Source: Candidatus Heimdallarchaeota archaeon (GTDB taxonomy: Archaea > Asgardarchaeota > Heimdallarchaeia > Heimdallarchaeales > Heimdallarchaeaceae). Taken from it: a stretch of 64,000 nucleotides of DNA. Positions 8,563 to 22,533 of this stretch are shown piece by piece. The stretch lies in contig JAHLWR010000001.1 of NCBI GenBank assembly GCA_019057815.1, positions 32,001-96,000 on the forward strand. Reading direction: 5' to 3'. The notes under the pieces are model-generated. The model saw only the letters and a list, made by a program, of their open reading frames with translations. It was not told the DNA's origin and did not search any database. Each line of letters begins with the position of its first letter. Positions within the stretch are counted from its first letter, which is position 1. The position numbers were made by a program, and so were the translations under genes.

Positions 8563-8790
8563 ATGGATATTGATAATTTCTCTGATTTTCAATTAGGAAT
8601 AATACAAACAGAAACTGAAAAAGCTTATTTTGCTACTATTATTAGGCTAACAGAAGACCCCGTCTGGATTCCTAAGAGTGTTGTTGAACGTAAGACTATG
8701 AAACTCAAAAAGTGGTTTATCGATCAATTACAAAACGAACTTAAAACCAATAAACAAACAACTTTGGCTGATTATTTTTCTACAAAGTAA
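8563..8790 (+). CDS. Small hypothetical protein of a type common in viruses and plasmids
   Basis: 75 aa with an 'ETEKA...WIPKS...W' pattern recalled from small phage proteins. Confidence 0.55.
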   Translation: MDIDNFSDFQLGIIQTETEKAYFATIIRLTEDPVWIPKSVVERKTMKLKKWFIDQLQNELKTNKQTTLADYFSTK

Positions 8791-9327: not shown

Positions 9328-9918
9328 ATGGATATTAAAAGAAAAATAAGCAATTTATCACGAGAAATTAGTGTGAAACTTTAAGAAATAGAAGATTTAC
9401 TTGAAACAAGTTACTTAAGTAAATCTTTTATTGACATTCCTAGTGGTCCAATTTCTTACGCAGATACGCATCGTAAGAGATTTTCGTTTCTTAAATGTCC
9501 AAAATTAATAAGTAATGTCTCCTACCACCTTATGTTGAATGACCTTTTTAGTTGGATGTTGCACAAATTTAATTTGTATTCTGTAGTTGAAGAAATGTTA
9601 ATCAAAATCTCAATTGCAAATTATGGTAATATAATTGCTGCTATTGTTACTCCCATTGCCAAACGCTTTATGAAACGCAAAAAACTTGGTTTTAATCAAG
9701 CTTGTAGTATTTTGGTTCAATCTAAGATTATTTCCTCCGATTTAAAAAAAGAACTGAGATGGGTATATGATATAAGATGTAAACAACATGTTGATACACT
9801 CAATCAATGGGAATATGAAGAATATAACTTAAGCCAATATAAGAAAACTGAAGATATTTGGTACAAACTTTTGAATCAAATAAAAACAGCTTCTAATAAT
9901 GGACTTATCCCTGATTAA
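9328..9918 (+). pseudogene. HEPN-like protein interrupted by a premature TAA
   Basis: ATG 9328 reads MDIKRKISNLSREISVKL*EIEDLL..., in frame with ORF 9532..9918, with a single TAA at 9382-9384. A helical C-terminal part carries an R-x3-H motif (IRCKQH). Confidence 0.6.
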
Positions 9919-10342: not shown

Positions 10343-12607
10343 ATGGACATCAAGGAATTCCTCGATAGACATCTTGGTAAAGAAGAAGTAAAATATTTAG
10401 CAAGATGTCTAGGTTTGAAACTAACTGGTAACAAAACTGAATTACTAGACAGTATAGTTACATGTGAGTATTTTGATAGAGACGATATCCCCAAAATCTT
10501 TCACAGAGACTTCTTAGATATGTTATCGAGAAAATATTCTCAACCTGTATCAGGATTAAAAGATGTGGCATGGAAAAGAATAGTAACTAAATTAAAACTT
10601 GATGGAGGAACATCAGCTTTAGAAGAGAAAATAGCAGAAGAACCTTTTGTAAAAACACAAATCCTAGATGAACCTATAGCTAAAGACAAAACTCTCACTG
10701 TAGAGAATCTAATAGTTGAAGGTGGTTATGAGGAAGCATATAATCAGATTCTTAAATTAGAAAAAAAACCTCTTAAAATTGAAGACAAAATCAAGTGTCA
10801 AATACTCAAAAGCAATGTTTTAAACAAACTAGGAAAATATGAACAATCTTTAGATCTTTCCTTAAATGTTTATGAGCAGAGTAAAAAAATCAACGACTCA
10901 ATATTAACAATGGATGCTGTTCTTAATATGTCCTATTCATTATGGAAAATAGGCAAATTTGATGATTCTTTAGCAATTATTGACAAACATGAAGATTTAG
11001 TGGAAAATCATAAACAGAAAGAACCTCATAAAGCTATAATTCAAAAAGCTACACTCTTAAGAATCAGAGGGGTTAACTTTCACGTTCTTGGAAAATTGAA
11101 TAAAGCTTTTGAATTCTATCAACAGAGTCTTGAACTATGGGAAAAATCTGATAATAAACAAGAAATTAGTTCTACTCTCAATAATCTAGGCGTACTGTGT
11201 AGAGGTAAGGGAGAATTACATAAAGCATTAGAATACTACCAGAGAAGCCTTGCAATATATGAAGAACTTAATAATGAAGATGATATAGCTACTTCATTAA
11301 ACAATATTGCTAATCTTTATCGGAATCAAGGTGATTTAGAAAGAGCCTTAGATTTTTATCGTAAAAGCCAAGCTACATGGGAAAAAATAGGTAATCAATC
11401 AAATATTGCATTATCTTTCTGTAACATAGGTGAGATATTTCTACAACAGGGGAATATAGACAATGCAATTGAATATCTCCAAAAAAGCCTTCGTCTCAGA
11501 GAGAAAGTAGGAAATAAACACGAATTAGTTTTAACTCGCTTTTATCTCATTTCTGCACTCTTAGATAATAGAAGAACTAAAGATGCACAGAAACATCTTA
11601 TCCACATCAAGGAGATTGTAGAAGGTGAAACAGATCCCTTCTTAAGTCAGATAACACGAGTATCTGAAGCTATGATTCTAAAAACAAGTACTCGTATAAG
11701 AAATAAAGCTAAAGCTGAGGAAATTTTTCAAAAAATCATAGAAGAAGACATTGTTGATTATTCAATAACTATTGTAGCTCTTCTTAATTTTGCTGAATTG
11801 CTACTTGACGAGCTAAGAATTACTGGAGACACAGAAGTACTAGCGATGCTTAAATCAATTTCTCTTAATCTTCTGGATGTATCAAAAAGGCATAATTCAT
11901 ATCTATTATTAGCAAAAACATATTGTCTTCAATCTCATTTAGCTTTAATAGATTTAGATCTAAACAGAGCACGAAGTTTGCTTACACAAGCTCAATTTAT
12001 TGCAGATGATAAAGGTATGTGGAGAATGGCAAGAAAGATTTCAAGTGAGCATGATGTTTTATTAAGCCAAACAGACAAATGGGAGGCGCTTGTAGAAAAA
12101 AATGCGCCAATGATTGAAAGGTTGGAACTTGCTCAATTGAGTAATATCATGCTAAGAATGATACAAGATGGGGAACTTACACCACCAAAATTGCTGAATG
12201 AAGAACCTGTTCTCTTACTAATATTAGCAGAAGGTGGCATGCCCTTATTTTTCAAGAACTACCATACAGAAGGACAACTTAATAGTTATCTTATAGGGGG
12301 CTTTTTATCAGCAATCAATGCATTTAGCAAAGAAACATTTTCTGTTGAAGGCTCAATTGAGAGAATAAAACACAATGAATTTACAATGCTCACAAAAAGC
12401 TTCGAACCATTTTTATTCTGTTATATCATGAAAGGACAAACTTATGCAGCCATGCAGAAATTAGAGGGGTTTGTGTATAGCATAACTTCCTCGGTTACAA
12501 TAAGTAATGAACTACTTAAATCAGTAAAAACTTCTAAAACCCTCACTCTTGAGTCATCAAAAGCTATTGAGGATATAGCTGTAAACATATTTCCAAGCAA
12601 AAGGTGA
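10343..12607 (+). CDS. SAP-like domain + TPR repeats + C-terminal longin/roadblock-like domain protein
   Basis: N-terminal 'KEEVKYLARCLGLKLTGNKTELLDSI'. Central TPRs (TLNNLGVL, SLNNIANLY, SFCNIGEIF). C-terminal 'LLILAEGGMPLF...LIGGFLSAINAFSKE'. Confidence 0.8.
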   Translation: MDIKEFLDRHLGKEEVKYLARCLGLKLTGNKTELLDSIVTCEYFDRDDIPKIFHRDFLDMLSRKYSQPVSGLKDVAWKRIVTKLKLDGGTSALEEKIAEEPFVKTQILDEPIAKDKTLTVENLIVEGGYEEAYNQILKLEKKPLKIEDKIKCQILKSNVLNKLGKYEQSLDLSLNVYEQSKKINDSILTMDAVLNMSYSLWKIGKFDDSLAIIDKHEDLVENHKQKEPHKAIIQKATLLRIRGVNFHVLGKLNKAFEFYQQSLELWEKSDNKQEISSTLNNLGVLCRGKGELHKALEYYQRSLAIYEELNNEDDIATSLNNIANLYRNQGDLERALDFYRKSQATWEKIGNQSNIALSFCNIGEIFLQQGNIDNAIEYLQKSLRLREKVGNKHELVLTRFYLISALLDNRRTKDAQKHLIHIKEIVEGETDPFLSQITRVSEAMILKTSTRIRNKAKAEEIFQKIIEEDIVDYSITIVALLNFAELLLDELRITGDTEVLAMLKSISLNLLDVSKRHNSYLLLAKTYCLQSHLALIDLDLNRARSLLTQAQFIADDKGMWRMARKISSEHDVLLSQTDKWEALVEKNAPMIERLELAQLSNIMLRMIQDGELTPPKLLNEEPVLLLILAEGGMPLFFKNYHTEGQLNSYLIGGFLSAINAFSKETFSVEGSIERIKHNEFTMLTKSFEPFLFCYIMKGQTYAAMQKLEGFVYSITSSVTISNELLKSVKTSKTLTLESSKAIEDIAVNIFPSKR

Positions 12608-12727: not shown

Positions 12728-13603
12728 ATGAATAAAAAGAAGATTTTACAATTTTTAGAAATTGCATTTCTTATACTGACTATAATCGGCTCGCTAGTTT
12801 TCAGTTTCACTTCAATATCTATTGGAATTCGAAACACATCTCTGAATGTAAGAGAAGGAGATATTCTACGTTTGATAATCCACGCATATGAATTTGATTA
12901 CACCAACACAGGAAATGTGTCACTCTATGATATAGTTGCAGGTATATTTTTGTATCCCTTTGAACTTGAATCTAAACAAGAAATTACTACTGAGGAAACT
13001 GAGAGCTCATCAGGAGAAAATGAAACAACGTATAACGATATAGATTATCCTATGCATAGTGATCGAGATATACCATTATTTGAAGGAAATCTTACTACAA
13101 ATCTAGTAATAACATTTGAAGTAATTGAAAAAATAGATGAAGACCATGCCATTTTACAAATTAAGGAAACTGGAGAAAATTTCACTTTGTGGTTATCTGA
13201 AACTTATAGAGCTCACAATCCATTTGCTTCCCCAAAAATGTATATTGGACTTGTAATAAGAGAAAAAACTAATCTAACACAGAGTTATGTTCATTGGAAT
13301 CCTATAAGCATTTTTTCCAGTAAAACTACAAGAGAAGCTCTCAATTGGATGAGTAGAGAATCAGAGAATATTGCAAATTTTGAAGTTCTTAAACTGTCAA
13401 AGAATCAATTTATGTCACCAACAGGAACAACTTCCGCGGGAGGTAATTATCAGTCTAATACTACCTGGACACTAGTTTCAAATAGTAACAGAATACAGTC
13501 CATTTCTAGTTATTCCCCTACTACTGTAGCTGATGATTTGGTTTGGAGTTTTAGTTATTCTATCGAATTAGAATGGGAATATCCAAAGGAGGGATCTACA
13601 TGA
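12728..13603 (+). CDS. Membrane-anchored or secreted hypothetical protein
   Basis: N-terminal TM or signal segment and an S/T/N-rich ectodomain. Confidence 0.7.
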   Translation: MNKKKILQFLEIAFLILTIIGSLVFSFTSISIGIRNTSLNVREGDILRLIIHAYEFDYTNTGNVSLYDIVAGIFLYPFELESKQEITTEETESSSGENETTYNDIDYPMHSDRDIPLFEGNLTTNLVITFEVIEKIDEDHAILQIKETGENFTLWLSETYRAHNPFASPKMYIGLVIREKTNLTQSYVHWNPISIFSSKTTREALNWMSRESENIANFEVLKLSKNQFMSPTGTTSAGGNYQSNTTWTLVSNSNRIQSISSYSPTTVADDLVWSFSYSIELEWEYPKEGST

Positions 13604-13821
13604 AGCCAGAATACGTTTTTTATTCTTTATATTCATTGATTGCAATTGAAATGATCATTGGACTAATTCTGAGGAGGTACATCCTCCTTATTTCTTGTCT
13701 TATACTGTTATTCTTTGCGGTCTCGATGAGGATATTACGTTTGATAGAATTTAAGATGCCAAAAAAGAGAAGCATGCTAATTTTTCCCCATTTTTCCCAT
13801 ATTTCTGTTAGCTTTTTATAG
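13600..13821 (+). CDS. Small two-TM membrane protein
   Basis: ATGA overlap with the upstream stop, GGAGG upstream, two hydrophobic segments. Confidence 0.55.
   Translation: MKPEYVFYSLYSLIAIEMIIGLILRRYILLISCLILLFFAVSMRILRLIEFKMPKKRSMLIFPHFSHISVSFL
13813..13820 (+). promoter_or_regulatory. Candidate TATA box for the structured RNA / wHTH transcript
   Basis: TTTTTATA about 21-28 nt upstream of the first hairpin at 13841. Confidence 0.4.
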
Positions 13822-13840
13822 GAAAATCTAATAGAAGTAC

Positions 13841-14080
13841 TGTCTTAAGCCAATGGCTAGAGACAAAGTAGAGTCATCTACTTACACCCGGAGCTGGAGT
13901 GAGAGCCTAAGGTTCTCAATAACATAGTCTTCAGTAATGAGTCCCGGAGAGGAGATGAACCCTCTCACCTCCGCTAACACTGTGTGTTGGAGGTGTAATC
14001 CCAGAGCTTGAAGCTCCCCCTACGCTACTGCTTGATGCGATGCGACCTTAAACGTTCTTGGGTTGGGAAGAGTCCTCAAA
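13841..14080 (+). ncRNA. Unassigned structured non-coding RNA or long leader RNA
   Basis: About 49% GC by hand count, in an AT-rich genome, with no ORF. Six consecutive hairpins. G-U wobbles favour the + strand. Confidence 0.65.
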
Positions 14081-14126
14081 ATTATTCGTCACTACCCTTA
14101 AGTGGGAAAAGTGGGAAAAATAACTC

Positions 14127-14609
14127 ATGAATTGGACAGATGTACGAACTCTTCTTTACGAAACCCTTGTTGAACAAAAGATTCTTATTAATGGAAAAAA
14201 AGCGATTAAAGGCGGAGCAGGAGGGAAAATCGTTGATTCCATCCAACATGTTGAGGATAATTATTTCAAGGAAAATAAGGCTTTTATTTCAGAATTAAGA
14301 GATATTGGAATTGATGGAATTTTATGCTTATTTTTCCTTATGCAACAAGAACCAGCTCTAACTGCTGTTAAAATCATCCATAAGATACTGCAAATTCCTG
14401 TAGCTTCAACTTATAGAATTATGCAAAAAAATTTGGATAAGGAACTAGTTACACTTCACTATTTAACGAACAAGCCAGGGAAAGCTTACTATCGTATAAC
14501 CGATGAAGGAACTTCTCTAATAATCCAACTTTACGAGCTATTAGGAGGGAAAATAATCCTTCCCTTCTCTAACTCAAAAGCGCAACAAGGCGTAGATGCG
14601 ACAATTTAA
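14127..14609 (+). CDS. Winged helix-turn-helix DNA-binding protein
   Basis: 'IHKILQIPVASTYRIMQKNLDKELV...KAYYRITDEG' wHTH plus wing. Confidence 0.75.
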   Translation: MNWTDVRTLLYETLVEQKILINGKKAIKGGAGGKIVDSIQHVEDNYFKENKAFISELRDIGIDGILCLFFLMQQEPALTAVKIIHKILQIPVASTYRIMQKNLDKELVTLHYLTNKPGKAYYRITDEGTSLIIQLYELLGGKIILPFSNSKAQQGVDATI

Positions 14610-20768: not shown

Positions 20769-22115
20769 ATGAACTACTCCTACCTAAAGGTAGGCGTTTC
20801 TTGATTCATTGAAAAGACTTGTCCACTGATGATTGCCGAAGCAGTAAGAGTGAACAGGGGTCTGTTCTCCACAAGTAAAGAGGTATGTCCCTTACGCCTC
20901 TTCAAAATGTTTATTGAAGCGTTATAGTCACGGTCTAGCTCTAAGCCACAATAAGGACAAGAGTGTGTCCTATCATTTAATGTCTTGGGGACTATCTCTC
21001 CACATCTGGAACATTCTTGAGTAGTGCCTCTAGGAGGAACTTTAACTAGTTCTTTATCAGCGTTTACAGCTTTATAAGCTAAATAGTTGAAGAATATTCC
21101 CCACGAAGCGTCGAGAATGTTACGATGGAGTGTGCGTGACCGCTTGTGTTTCTTATTTCCGTTCTGTGTGAGTCCTTTAATATTCAAGTTTTCCACACAG
21201 ATAATATCATAATTATCTACATAAAAGTTTGAGACTTTATGTAAGAAGTCTTTACGCTGGTCAACAGCTTTAGTGTAGAGTTTAGCCAACTGATATTTGG
21301 CTTTTAACCAATTCTTTGAACCTTGCTTTTTACGACTAAGAGATTTGTGCTTATTTTTAAGTTTCTTTAATTGTCTTTCTATGTTTTTAGGATTCTCTAT
21401 CTCTCGTCCATCCGAATCCACTGCGTAAGAATTTATCCCTACATCTATCCCTACGCTTTTAGAGGTTTTAGGAAGAGATATAGGAGCGTTCTCTACTTGT
21501 ATATTAGCGAACCATCTACCTGTTTGAGAACGTTTGAGTATTATGCCCTTGACTTTGTTTGTACGTATACGATTGTTTAATCCTCTACAATTGATAGTAC
21601 CTATCTTAGAAAAGGTTAGTTTATTTTTGTTTTCATCTATCTTGAATCCACTCTGGTTATAGTTGATAGTCTTGTACCATCCTTTTCCTTTGAAACGTAA
21701 GTGACCGATCTTATGTCCATTCTTCTTTAATTGTGCTAGACTTTTGATATTTGTCCATAGAGTGTAATTGACCATCTGTAAAACTTTAGAATATACCCCT
21801 TTCAATTCAGGCATAGAACTGTTTTTTAGCCCCACGATAAAAGATTGAGTTTTGATTTGTGTGAGTTTTTCTCCCTTCTCTCACGCTTTTTTGCGCTCTT
21901 CTAATAGCTTATTATAGAGTTTTCTGCAAATATCCAACTGTTCAATGAGTGTGGCTTGTTGCTGTTTATTAGGGTACAGTTGCACTTTGTAGGTTAACAT
22001 CAGTTCATTTCCTTATTTCCTTAGTACTTTTTTCACTATAAAAAGACGAGTATATGCTAAAGTGATGTTTCTATCGCATTCATCCCCACCTAAAGTTAGG
22101 GGATTTCTGCTATGC
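20769..22115 (-). mobile_element. Non-autonomous IS200/IS605-family (IS1341-like) element, tnpB only
   Basis: Left-end hairpin (minus strand) AATCCCCTAACTTTAGGTGGGGATGAATGCG, preceded by TTGAG. Right-end hairpin CCTACCTTTAGGTAGGAGTAGTTCAT. No tnpA. Ends are accurate to within a few bp. Confidence 0.85.
20780..22000 (-). pseudogene. tnpB: TnpB RNA-guided nuclease with in-frame TGA at codon 40
   Basis: ATG 22000 reads MLTYKVQLYPN...ERKKA*EKGE and continues in frame into ORF 20780..21835. RuvC motifs GIDVG, VENL and DRDYNAS and the Zn ribbon CSRC/CPYC are intact. Confidence 0.9.
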
Positions 22116-22122
22116 TCAATAT

Positions 22123-22533
22123 TTAAAAGTCTTCAGCAGTAGCAGATTCTTCTTTTTTCTTCACTACTTCAGCTGCATCTGCTTCTTTTTGTGCTTCCTG
22201 AACTTTTTGCTCTCTTTTGTTTAACTCTTGTTCTTTATCTGCAATTTTTACTTCAAGTTCGCGTATTTTAAGTTCTTTCTCAGCAATTGAAGCTTCTATT
22301 TTCTTAACAGCAACTTCTAGCTTAAAGGCTTTATCTGGTCGCCCTTTTTCTTTTTCTTCTGCAGCTTTCATTAGTTTTTCTTCAATTGACTTGTAATCCT
22401 TGAAACTCTTCTTATGTTGAGATGCGACTTTTTTCCTAAGATCTTGGATGTCTTTAAGAGTGTCATAAATATCCATTTCCAAATCATATTGCTCTTCACG
22501 CAATTCATAATACTTCTTTCCTTCTTCACTCAT
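22123..22533 (-). CDS. Coiled-coil hypothetical protein
   Basis: E/K-rich heptad pattern, 136 aa. Confidence 0.7.
   Translation of the reverse strand: MSEEGKKYYELREEQYDLEMDIYDTLKDIQDLRKKVASQHKKSFKDYKSIEEKLMKAAEEKEKGRPDKAFKLEVAVKKIEASIAEKELKIRELEVKIADKEQELNKREQKVQEAQKEADAAEVVKKKEESATAEDF

Follow-up and report, generated by a model that had tools for sequence, protein, structure and literature searches.

A hairpin-rich RNA block in a Heimdallarchaeota genome as the probable omegaRNA scaffold of a protein-free TnpB-family element

The hairpin-rich block at 13841–14080 of the window (the whole 64-kb stretch of Candidatus Heimdallarchaeota DNA analyzed) belongs to a TnpB transposon family of Heimdallarchaeia, of which it is the non-coding 3′ module; the copy here is a gene-less short derivative. 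We assign a probability of about 0.9 to the overall explanation that it is an omegaRNA scaffold, loaded in trans and borne by a protein-free element inserted at a CAT within a gene for a transmembrane winged-helix (TM-wHTH) protein. Protein-free omegaRNA carriers are already known, and it is the ends of this element that are unusual. Our literature search found no paper describing these Heimdallarchaeia elements.

The element occupies 13773–14128 on the + strand, comprising 356 nt with both CAT copies, for a net insertion of 353 nt. The host genome (G000) holds 11 copies, 86–100% identical, with unrelated flanks and sharp, identical ends, all of which start with CATG and terminate in ACTCAT. 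Six are ~355 nt long and five carry ~1.42 kb extra past the first ~67 nt, so that the short form derives by internal deletion from a 1.77-kb TnpB-only element with the same ends. Related copies occur in nine further genomes of the same family. Each end bears two 9–10-bp units arranged as sub-terminal inverted repeats: the left repeat (13781–13799, +; T-tract/CCCA units) is inverted relative to the right one (14102–14120, +), and both lie equally far from their junctions. The left junction CAT (13773–13775) is preceded here by G and the right junction CAT (14126–14128) by a T within the element; the former may be a target core or a 3-bp duplication since, with CAT fixed as the target, core crossover and target duplication leave the same sequence.

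In the short form, the left end, which retains the tnpB TATA box (13813–13820, +), is fused to what remains of tnpB, its final 22 codons, and to the right end. The box, presumably a promoter, lies ~38 nt before the tnpB start in long copies and 20 nt before the scaffold here. The deletion junction (13839–13840), at which ~1.42 kb of tnpB is missing, falls at the identical point in 10/10 short copies from four genomes, always ~20 nt past the TATA box. These short copies are not monophyletic (AU p 0.006), and those of genome G026 cluster with the long copy of the same genome (99/91), which implies repeated origin or gene conversion. A search with a model of this RNA also retrieved a separate 377-bp gene-less family with the same TATA spacing, represented by 16 full copies in H. 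endolithica and six in H. aukensis. This recurrence suggests selection for a promoter plus a complete scaffold in the short elements.

An earlier note on this DNA had described a multi-hairpin RNA of ~240 nt with ~49% GC, and much of that description survives. All six hairpin stems that it listed are present in the sequence, and the GC content over 13841–14080 is 49.2%, compared with 31.5% and 34.2% in the flanks; the background, given as ~30%, is nearer 33% (32.8% over the whole window). The TATA-like box does precede the hairpins at the distance proposed (21–28 nt), ending 21 nt ahead of the first stem at 13841. The + strand, favored as the RNA strand, folds better than shuffled sequences (z −2.62, with 2/200 shuffles equally good), whereas the − strand does not (z −1.04). 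The Rfam scan that the note had recommended returned no match for the block at gathering or E-value thresholds, and ARAGORN predicted no tRNA, so the block belongs to no Rfam family, as supposed.

Other parts of that description had to be redrawn. Although described as free of open reading frames, the block is partly coding in origin, since 13842–13910 (+) corresponds to the last 22 codons and the stop of tnpB; this stretch, here interrupted by one internal stop, coincides with the 5′ portion of the RNA. The RNA unit is also larger than 240 nt: the predicted omegaRNA (reRNA) scaffold, recognized by its position at the 3′ end of tnpB and the element's right boundary and by its consensus fold, spans 289 nt (13840–14128, +) and contains the hairpins first noted. 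The consensus fold of 23 homologues comprises 67 pairs, with 97% of cells paired and ten pairs changed on both sides, and exceeds shuffled and slid controls. The covariation, which the earlier note had proposed to check, is modest: the homologues are closely related (87% column identity over the 23 aligned copies) and their first 70 nt are also under coding constraint, so it is supportive rather than decisive and partly shared by descent. Four of the listed stems (13841–13865, 13866–13883, 13900–13918 and 13967–13994) belong to this fold, whereas 13947–13966 and 14004–14016 do not, and the proposed alternative GGAGCT/AGCTCC pairing of 13890 with 14012 is likewise unconserved across the 23 homologues, leaving no support for a switch.

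The 3′ end of the scaffold appears to be closed by a short duplex. The internal hexamer ATGAGT (13937–13942, +) is complementary to the terminal ACTCAT (14123–14128), and the predicted helix, which has a pair probability of 0.6–0.8 and is nested in the overall fold, so that it is no evidence for a pseudoknot, would sit directly before the guide. Both hexamers are kept in four divergent Heimdall sub-families (including those at 45% protein identity, that of genome G005 and the short family of the closed H. aukensis and H. endolithica genomes), and a compensatory change to ATGATT/AATCAT marks a fifth, the H. aukensis/H. endolithica TnpB family; in Thorarchaeota, the same test revealed no consistent internal partner. 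Bases directly ahead of the guide also pair internally in ISDra2 (PMC10097598) and in ISXfa1 of the IS607 family (PMC6188088, PMC10711439). Across 27 right flanks, conservation ends at the terminal CAT, with G at +1 in 19. The following host-flank bases (14129–14148, +) differ in every copy and match the empty allele just past its CAT; by analogy with known TnpB systems (PMC10097598), they are the predicted guide.

Given the remnant at 13842–13910, the RNA shares sequence with the 3′ end of tnpB and extends as far as the right end, which is the hallmark location of an omegaRNA (PMC10097598), and at five of the 11 sites in G000 the same RNA is the 3′ end of a tnpB gene. The long copies encode a protein of ~490 residues (488–492), intact in three (contigs C10, C39 and C40) and frameshifted in two, which matches Pfam Cas12f1-like_TNB (E 2.5e-13) and NCBIfam guided_TnpB (E 1e-21). 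Its predicted structure (pLDDT 86) matches Cas12f and TnpB structures with E-values of 1e-16 to 1e-12. D231, an alternative E390, D425 and the four cysteines of a zinc finger are invariant among 60 homologues. Unlike in ISDra2 TnpB, the canonical RuvC-II glutamate is replaced by glycine and an alternative glutamate lies 53 residues further on, a rearranged active site that has been described in enzymes that remain active (PMC10691335, PMC10530073). Judged from sequence, the RNA combines every omegaRNA feature examined: position, a scaffold with a variable flank, terminal pairing and a cognate TnpB.

An inert MITE of the same origin, in which the RNA is a passenger, the element spreads through its two ends and no guide is used, is the strongest rival, though we consider it unlikely. 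In its favor, no tnpB neighbors the short family in the closed genomes of H. endolithica and H. aukensis, where the RNA of that family is unlike the RNA of the TnpB copies examined, so that short elements may spread without a cognate nuclease. Solo right ends of 25–540 nt also occur. By contrast, ~70 nt of ends would suffice for such an element, yet all two-ended short copies retain the whole ~290-nt scaffold, its 5′ end coincides, in more than one lineage, with the predicted start of transcription, and its pairing is 97% intact. The solo right ends are numerous (L221–L234 in the two closed genomes, and C27:90264–90313 and C19:25553–25574 in G000); they end exactly in CAT on the 3′ side but are truncated to varying extents on the 5′ side. 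Five of 12 begin at an internal CAT/ATG, and one directly follows the end of another family; target duplications are absent, and this, together with the starts at internal CAT/ATG, fits core recombination better than retrotransposition as their source.

The insertion itself is documented by empty sites. In the sister species (G001), the orthologous locus is empty and has one CAT, and contig C5 of G000 carries the empty site of a G001 insertion, likewise with one CAT. The G001 empty allele at the present locus (L079, G001:C195) reads CATT instead of CATG, and a +1 insertion ~20 bp upstream breaks its frame; these oddities could reflect a repair scar, an escape allele or an assembly error. Removal of the element joins the upstream reading frame (13600–13775, +, encoding two hydrophobic segments, with an in-frame ATG also at 13573) in frame with that at 14127–14609 (+, winged-helix-like, with a weak PadR match, E 0.03). 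The two parts form a single ORF in the homologues L080–L093, and the apparent start codon of the wHTH fragment consists of the AT of the right-junction CAT and the next G. The wHTH gene is thus the victim of the insertion, a split membrane-anchored TM-wHTH gene.

These observations leave very little room for the suggestion that the RNA is a cis-acting leader or riboswitch, or forms an RNA–protein module with the wHTH protein. The RNA does lie upstream of the wHTH fragment and has a TATA box, and transcripts reading through it might allow expression of the wHTH part without its membrane anchor. However, the same RNA occupies ten other unrelated contexts, 11 sites in all, the wHTH ortholog of the sister species lacks it, and the stems of the supposed alternative fold are unconserved. 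The wHTH homologues, beside which related RNAs were to be collected, are intact TM-wHTH genes without the RNA. The empty G001 site refutes a leader as the origin of the RNA, whatever secondary promoter effect it may have; what endures of the "novel ncRNA or riboswitch-like leader" is a structured + strand RNA behind a promoter-like box, outside any Rfam family.

The bases at the junctions suggest how the element could be maintained. At the position preceding the left CAT, insertions have G, C or A, and T occurs in 0/22 (probability ~1.5e-4 at 33% T), whereas the right end of the element itself reads TCAT. We therefore propose 5′-VCAT as a candidate TAM: exclusion of T before the left CAT, together with TCAT at the right end, provides the asymmetry needed to cut an empty allele and spare an occupied one. 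The exclusion of T could also stem from the transposase alone.

In the proposed working of the trans-loaded element, the TATA box would direct a transcript that starts at ~13840, crosses the right end and continues into the flank. The transcript would fold as an omegaRNA scaffold closed by the ATGAGT/ACTCAT duplex, be loaded in trans by TnpB from the intact long copies on C10, C39 and C40, and use the ~20 nt beyond the right end as guide. The complex would cut only the empty allele, which offers VCAT and a guide match, while the occupied allele, reading TCAT, would be spared; repair from the occupied copy would then restore the element at the cut site. Such cut-and-copy maintenance is probable in our estimation and parallels the cleavage of excised alleles and repair from the occupied copy described for IS200/IS605 (PMC10055086). 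New insertions would additionally need an enzyme supplied in trans, with the sub-terminal repeats as its recognition sites and the CAT/AT core as its point of recombination.

Compared with the TnpB omegaRNA of ISDra2 (IS200/IS605; PMC10097598), the present system has the same overlap with the tnpB 3′ end and right end, a flank guide, internal pairing of the terminus and the TnpB/Cas12f fold. It differs in that the RNA, here ~290 nt, has no sequence or Rfam match to the ISDra2 omegaRNA, and the element has inverted sub-terminal repeats instead of hairpin ends and no Y1 TnpA. The closest parallel to the short form is found in the PATE-like protein-free elements of G. stearothermophilus, which carry omegaRNAs and need TnpB in trans (PMC10055086). 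Like these, the short form is gene-less, shares its ends with TnpB elements, is dispersed in several copies and carries the RNA, with TnpB and transposase presumably supplied in trans; the absence of a gene, the shared ends and the dispersed copies are those of a protein-free omegaRNA element. Unlike PATEs, it is not a palindrome-ended IS200/IS605 derivative, an archaeal TATA box is fused directly to the scaffold, and it has no candidate transposase. Membership of IS200/IS605, PATEs proper included, is ruled out by its inverted-repeat ends; the local Y1/IS605-type elements have different, hairpin ends.

The ends resemble those of the IS607 family (IS607, IS1535, ISC1926, ISXfa1; PMC6188088, PMC10711439), which combine an imperfect sub-terminal inverted repeat with short direct-repeat motifs and a short core common to both junctions and the target. 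They nevertheless differ in having repeats equidistant from the junctions and a CAT/AT core, which rules out the GG core of IS607 at the junctions and target, and no copy carries a serine TnpA. The genuine IS607 elements of G000 have ends unrelated to this element.

Among TnpB relatives that have a partner gene, the nearest come from Thorarchaeota (37–42% identity over ~90% of the length), where tnpB lies head-to-head with a gene for a 1.7–1.9-kaa protein. The N-terminal domain of this protein has the Cas1 catalytic fold (Z 12.8, rmsd 3.9, 178 aligned residues; the top 12 matches are all Cas1). By similarity, the TnpB studied here would belong to this aCas1-associated clade. Asgard aCas1–TnpB loci have been described as Cas1H-Asgard-1/-2 with an end motif (PMC10691335), and the Thorarchaeota relatives end in that motif. 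Their right-end motif, GTTCACTCAC, resembles AATAACTCAT of this element; with the aCas1–TnpB motif GTTCACTCA downstream of tnpB, the element has only ACTCA in common. Unlike the Asgard aCas1–TnpB loci, the elements here are TnpB-only or gene-less, with no aCas1 ORF in any copy, and a search with the RNA model (R1) misses the RNAs of Thorarchaeota. The Thorarchaeota loci themselves (L127, L128, L235–L246) combine one aCas1 family with two TnpB types of ~570 and ~725 residues; in the ~570-residue type, the motif GTTCACTC flanks tnpB in inverted orientation, with one copy between tnpB and aCas1. The RuvC-II rearrangement is of the same kind as in Fanzor and rearranged-RuvC TnpB proteins, which are likewise associated with symmetric-ended non-autonomous elements (PMC10530073), a likeness from which we claim no kinship; unlike in Fanzor, RuvC-I reads DLG and not DPG, and both structure and profile matches favor Cas12f/TnpB over Fanzor2.

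A transposase with matching ends was not found among the serine, Y1, Cas1, DDE, IS110 and tyrosine families. In the closed genomes of H. aukensis (G004) and H. endolithica (G007), paired ends enclose only ~1.85-kb or ~0.38-kb elements, and the search for serine recombinases gave only two conserved stand-alone resolvases each. A scan for other ATG…CAT inverted-repeat pairs up to 12 kb yielded no convincing autonomous partner. Several residents of G000 were rejected as the mover: its IS607 TnpA genes are broken or lie at contig ends with unrelated ends, its Y1 TnpA elements have hairpin ends, and its IS4/IS5-clan DDE elements are bounded by distinct terminal repeats of their own. The DDE elements are found at C33:3682 onward, C19:41827 and C43:177681 in G000, and with ~20 copies are abundant in H. 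endolithica. Cas1 searches matched two intact genes and one broken gene in G000, the flanks of the latter showing no element end motifs, and aCas1 (profile A1) was not found in G000 or in 30 other genomes of its family. Searches of G000 for the IS630, IS110 and tyrosine-integrase families came back empty.

An IS607-like serine recombinase is our leading candidate for the mobilizing enzyme, at somewhat short of even odds. Stand-alone serine recombinases of 240–285 residues with an N-terminal catalytic domain, two or three of which are conserved across the family, apparently outside elements (L044–L046, L204, L205, L209, L210, L213–L220), are candidates for the trans-acting enzyme. A DDE transposase making a 3-bp duplication is doubtful, as is, to the same degree, something unrecognized, TnpB itself included; an aCas1-type integrase is more doubtful still. 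Of 14 Thorarchaeota loci checked, one has an IS607 tnpA next to aCas1, and the TnpB of that locus is of a different type. It is a rather improbable proposition that the CAT-core inverted-repeat TnpB elements of Heimdallarchaeia form an undescribed family whose mobilizing enzyme is none of the known TnpB partners but, for example, one of the host's stand-alone serine recombinases or the TnpB–RNA complex. If true, it would explain the spread of families with different end motifs and unrelated TnpBs in closed genomes whose elements bear no transposase with these ends.

Symmetric sub-terminal repeats around a short common core would also suit a bridge or seek RNA guiding an IS110/IS1111-type recombinase, but the gene of the long form encodes TnpB and not a DEDD recombinase, G000, G001 and the two closed genomes contain no PF01548 match, and the variable part lies outside the right end, with no internal loop varying with the target, which makes this reading highly improbable. 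A housekeeping RNA (SRP, RNase P or tRNA-like), despite a compatible size, GC content and TATA box, is negligible, given that the SRP RNA (RF01857) and RNase P RNA (RF00373) of G000 lie on C43 and C42, the Rfam and ARAGORN searches were empty here, and the block is multi-copy and patchily distributed.

The genome contains further elements of comparable build. Four or five other TnpB-only families of 1.37–1.44 kb with different TnpBs were located in G000 (C1:96482–97881, C33:134716–136159, C24:150643–152019, C19:48880–50311 and C31:17788–19160, with sister copies); they have sub-terminal inverted repeats of other motifs on the same ATG…CAT end plan, and none has a transposase. Three more gene-less structured repeat families are represented by C1:108270–108561 (10 copies), C7:9671–10027 (four) and C1:35383–35777 (seven), two of them with inverted-repeat/CAT-type ends, whereas the third shares its ends with the local IS607 element. 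Within the window, the region 7 kb downstream (~20770–22130, −) holds a different TnpB-only element, a hairpin-ended member of a 13-copy IS605/IS1341 type. Small genes at 8563–8790, 9532–9918 and 10343–10640, together with the N-terminus of a TPR protein, have homologues (38–42%) clustered in genome G012 (L124) near a HerA-like ATPase gene, which suggests a mobile island; a 75-aa gene of this group has four copies in G000. In genus g3 (L101–L109, L124–L133), TnpBs of 45% identity keep the right-end motif and RNA core with no matching left end, and several follow a HerA-like ATPase gene fragment of varying length.

As a wHTH regulator, the RNA has no importance, the wHTH gene being the victim of the insertion. 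What had been an orphan ncRNA would instead become a specified RNA-guided nuclease system, with a protein, scaffold bounds, a candidate TAM (5′-VCAT) and a guide position, the boundaries of the scaffold being given by natural deletions. For the rearranged-RuvC, aCas1-linked TnpB clade, the literature that we found holds computational descriptions alone. Asgard archaea are the archaeal lineage closest to eukaryotes. The main interest of the finding lies in the missing transposase and in an Asgard TnpB clade whose candidate TAM can be read from its insertions.
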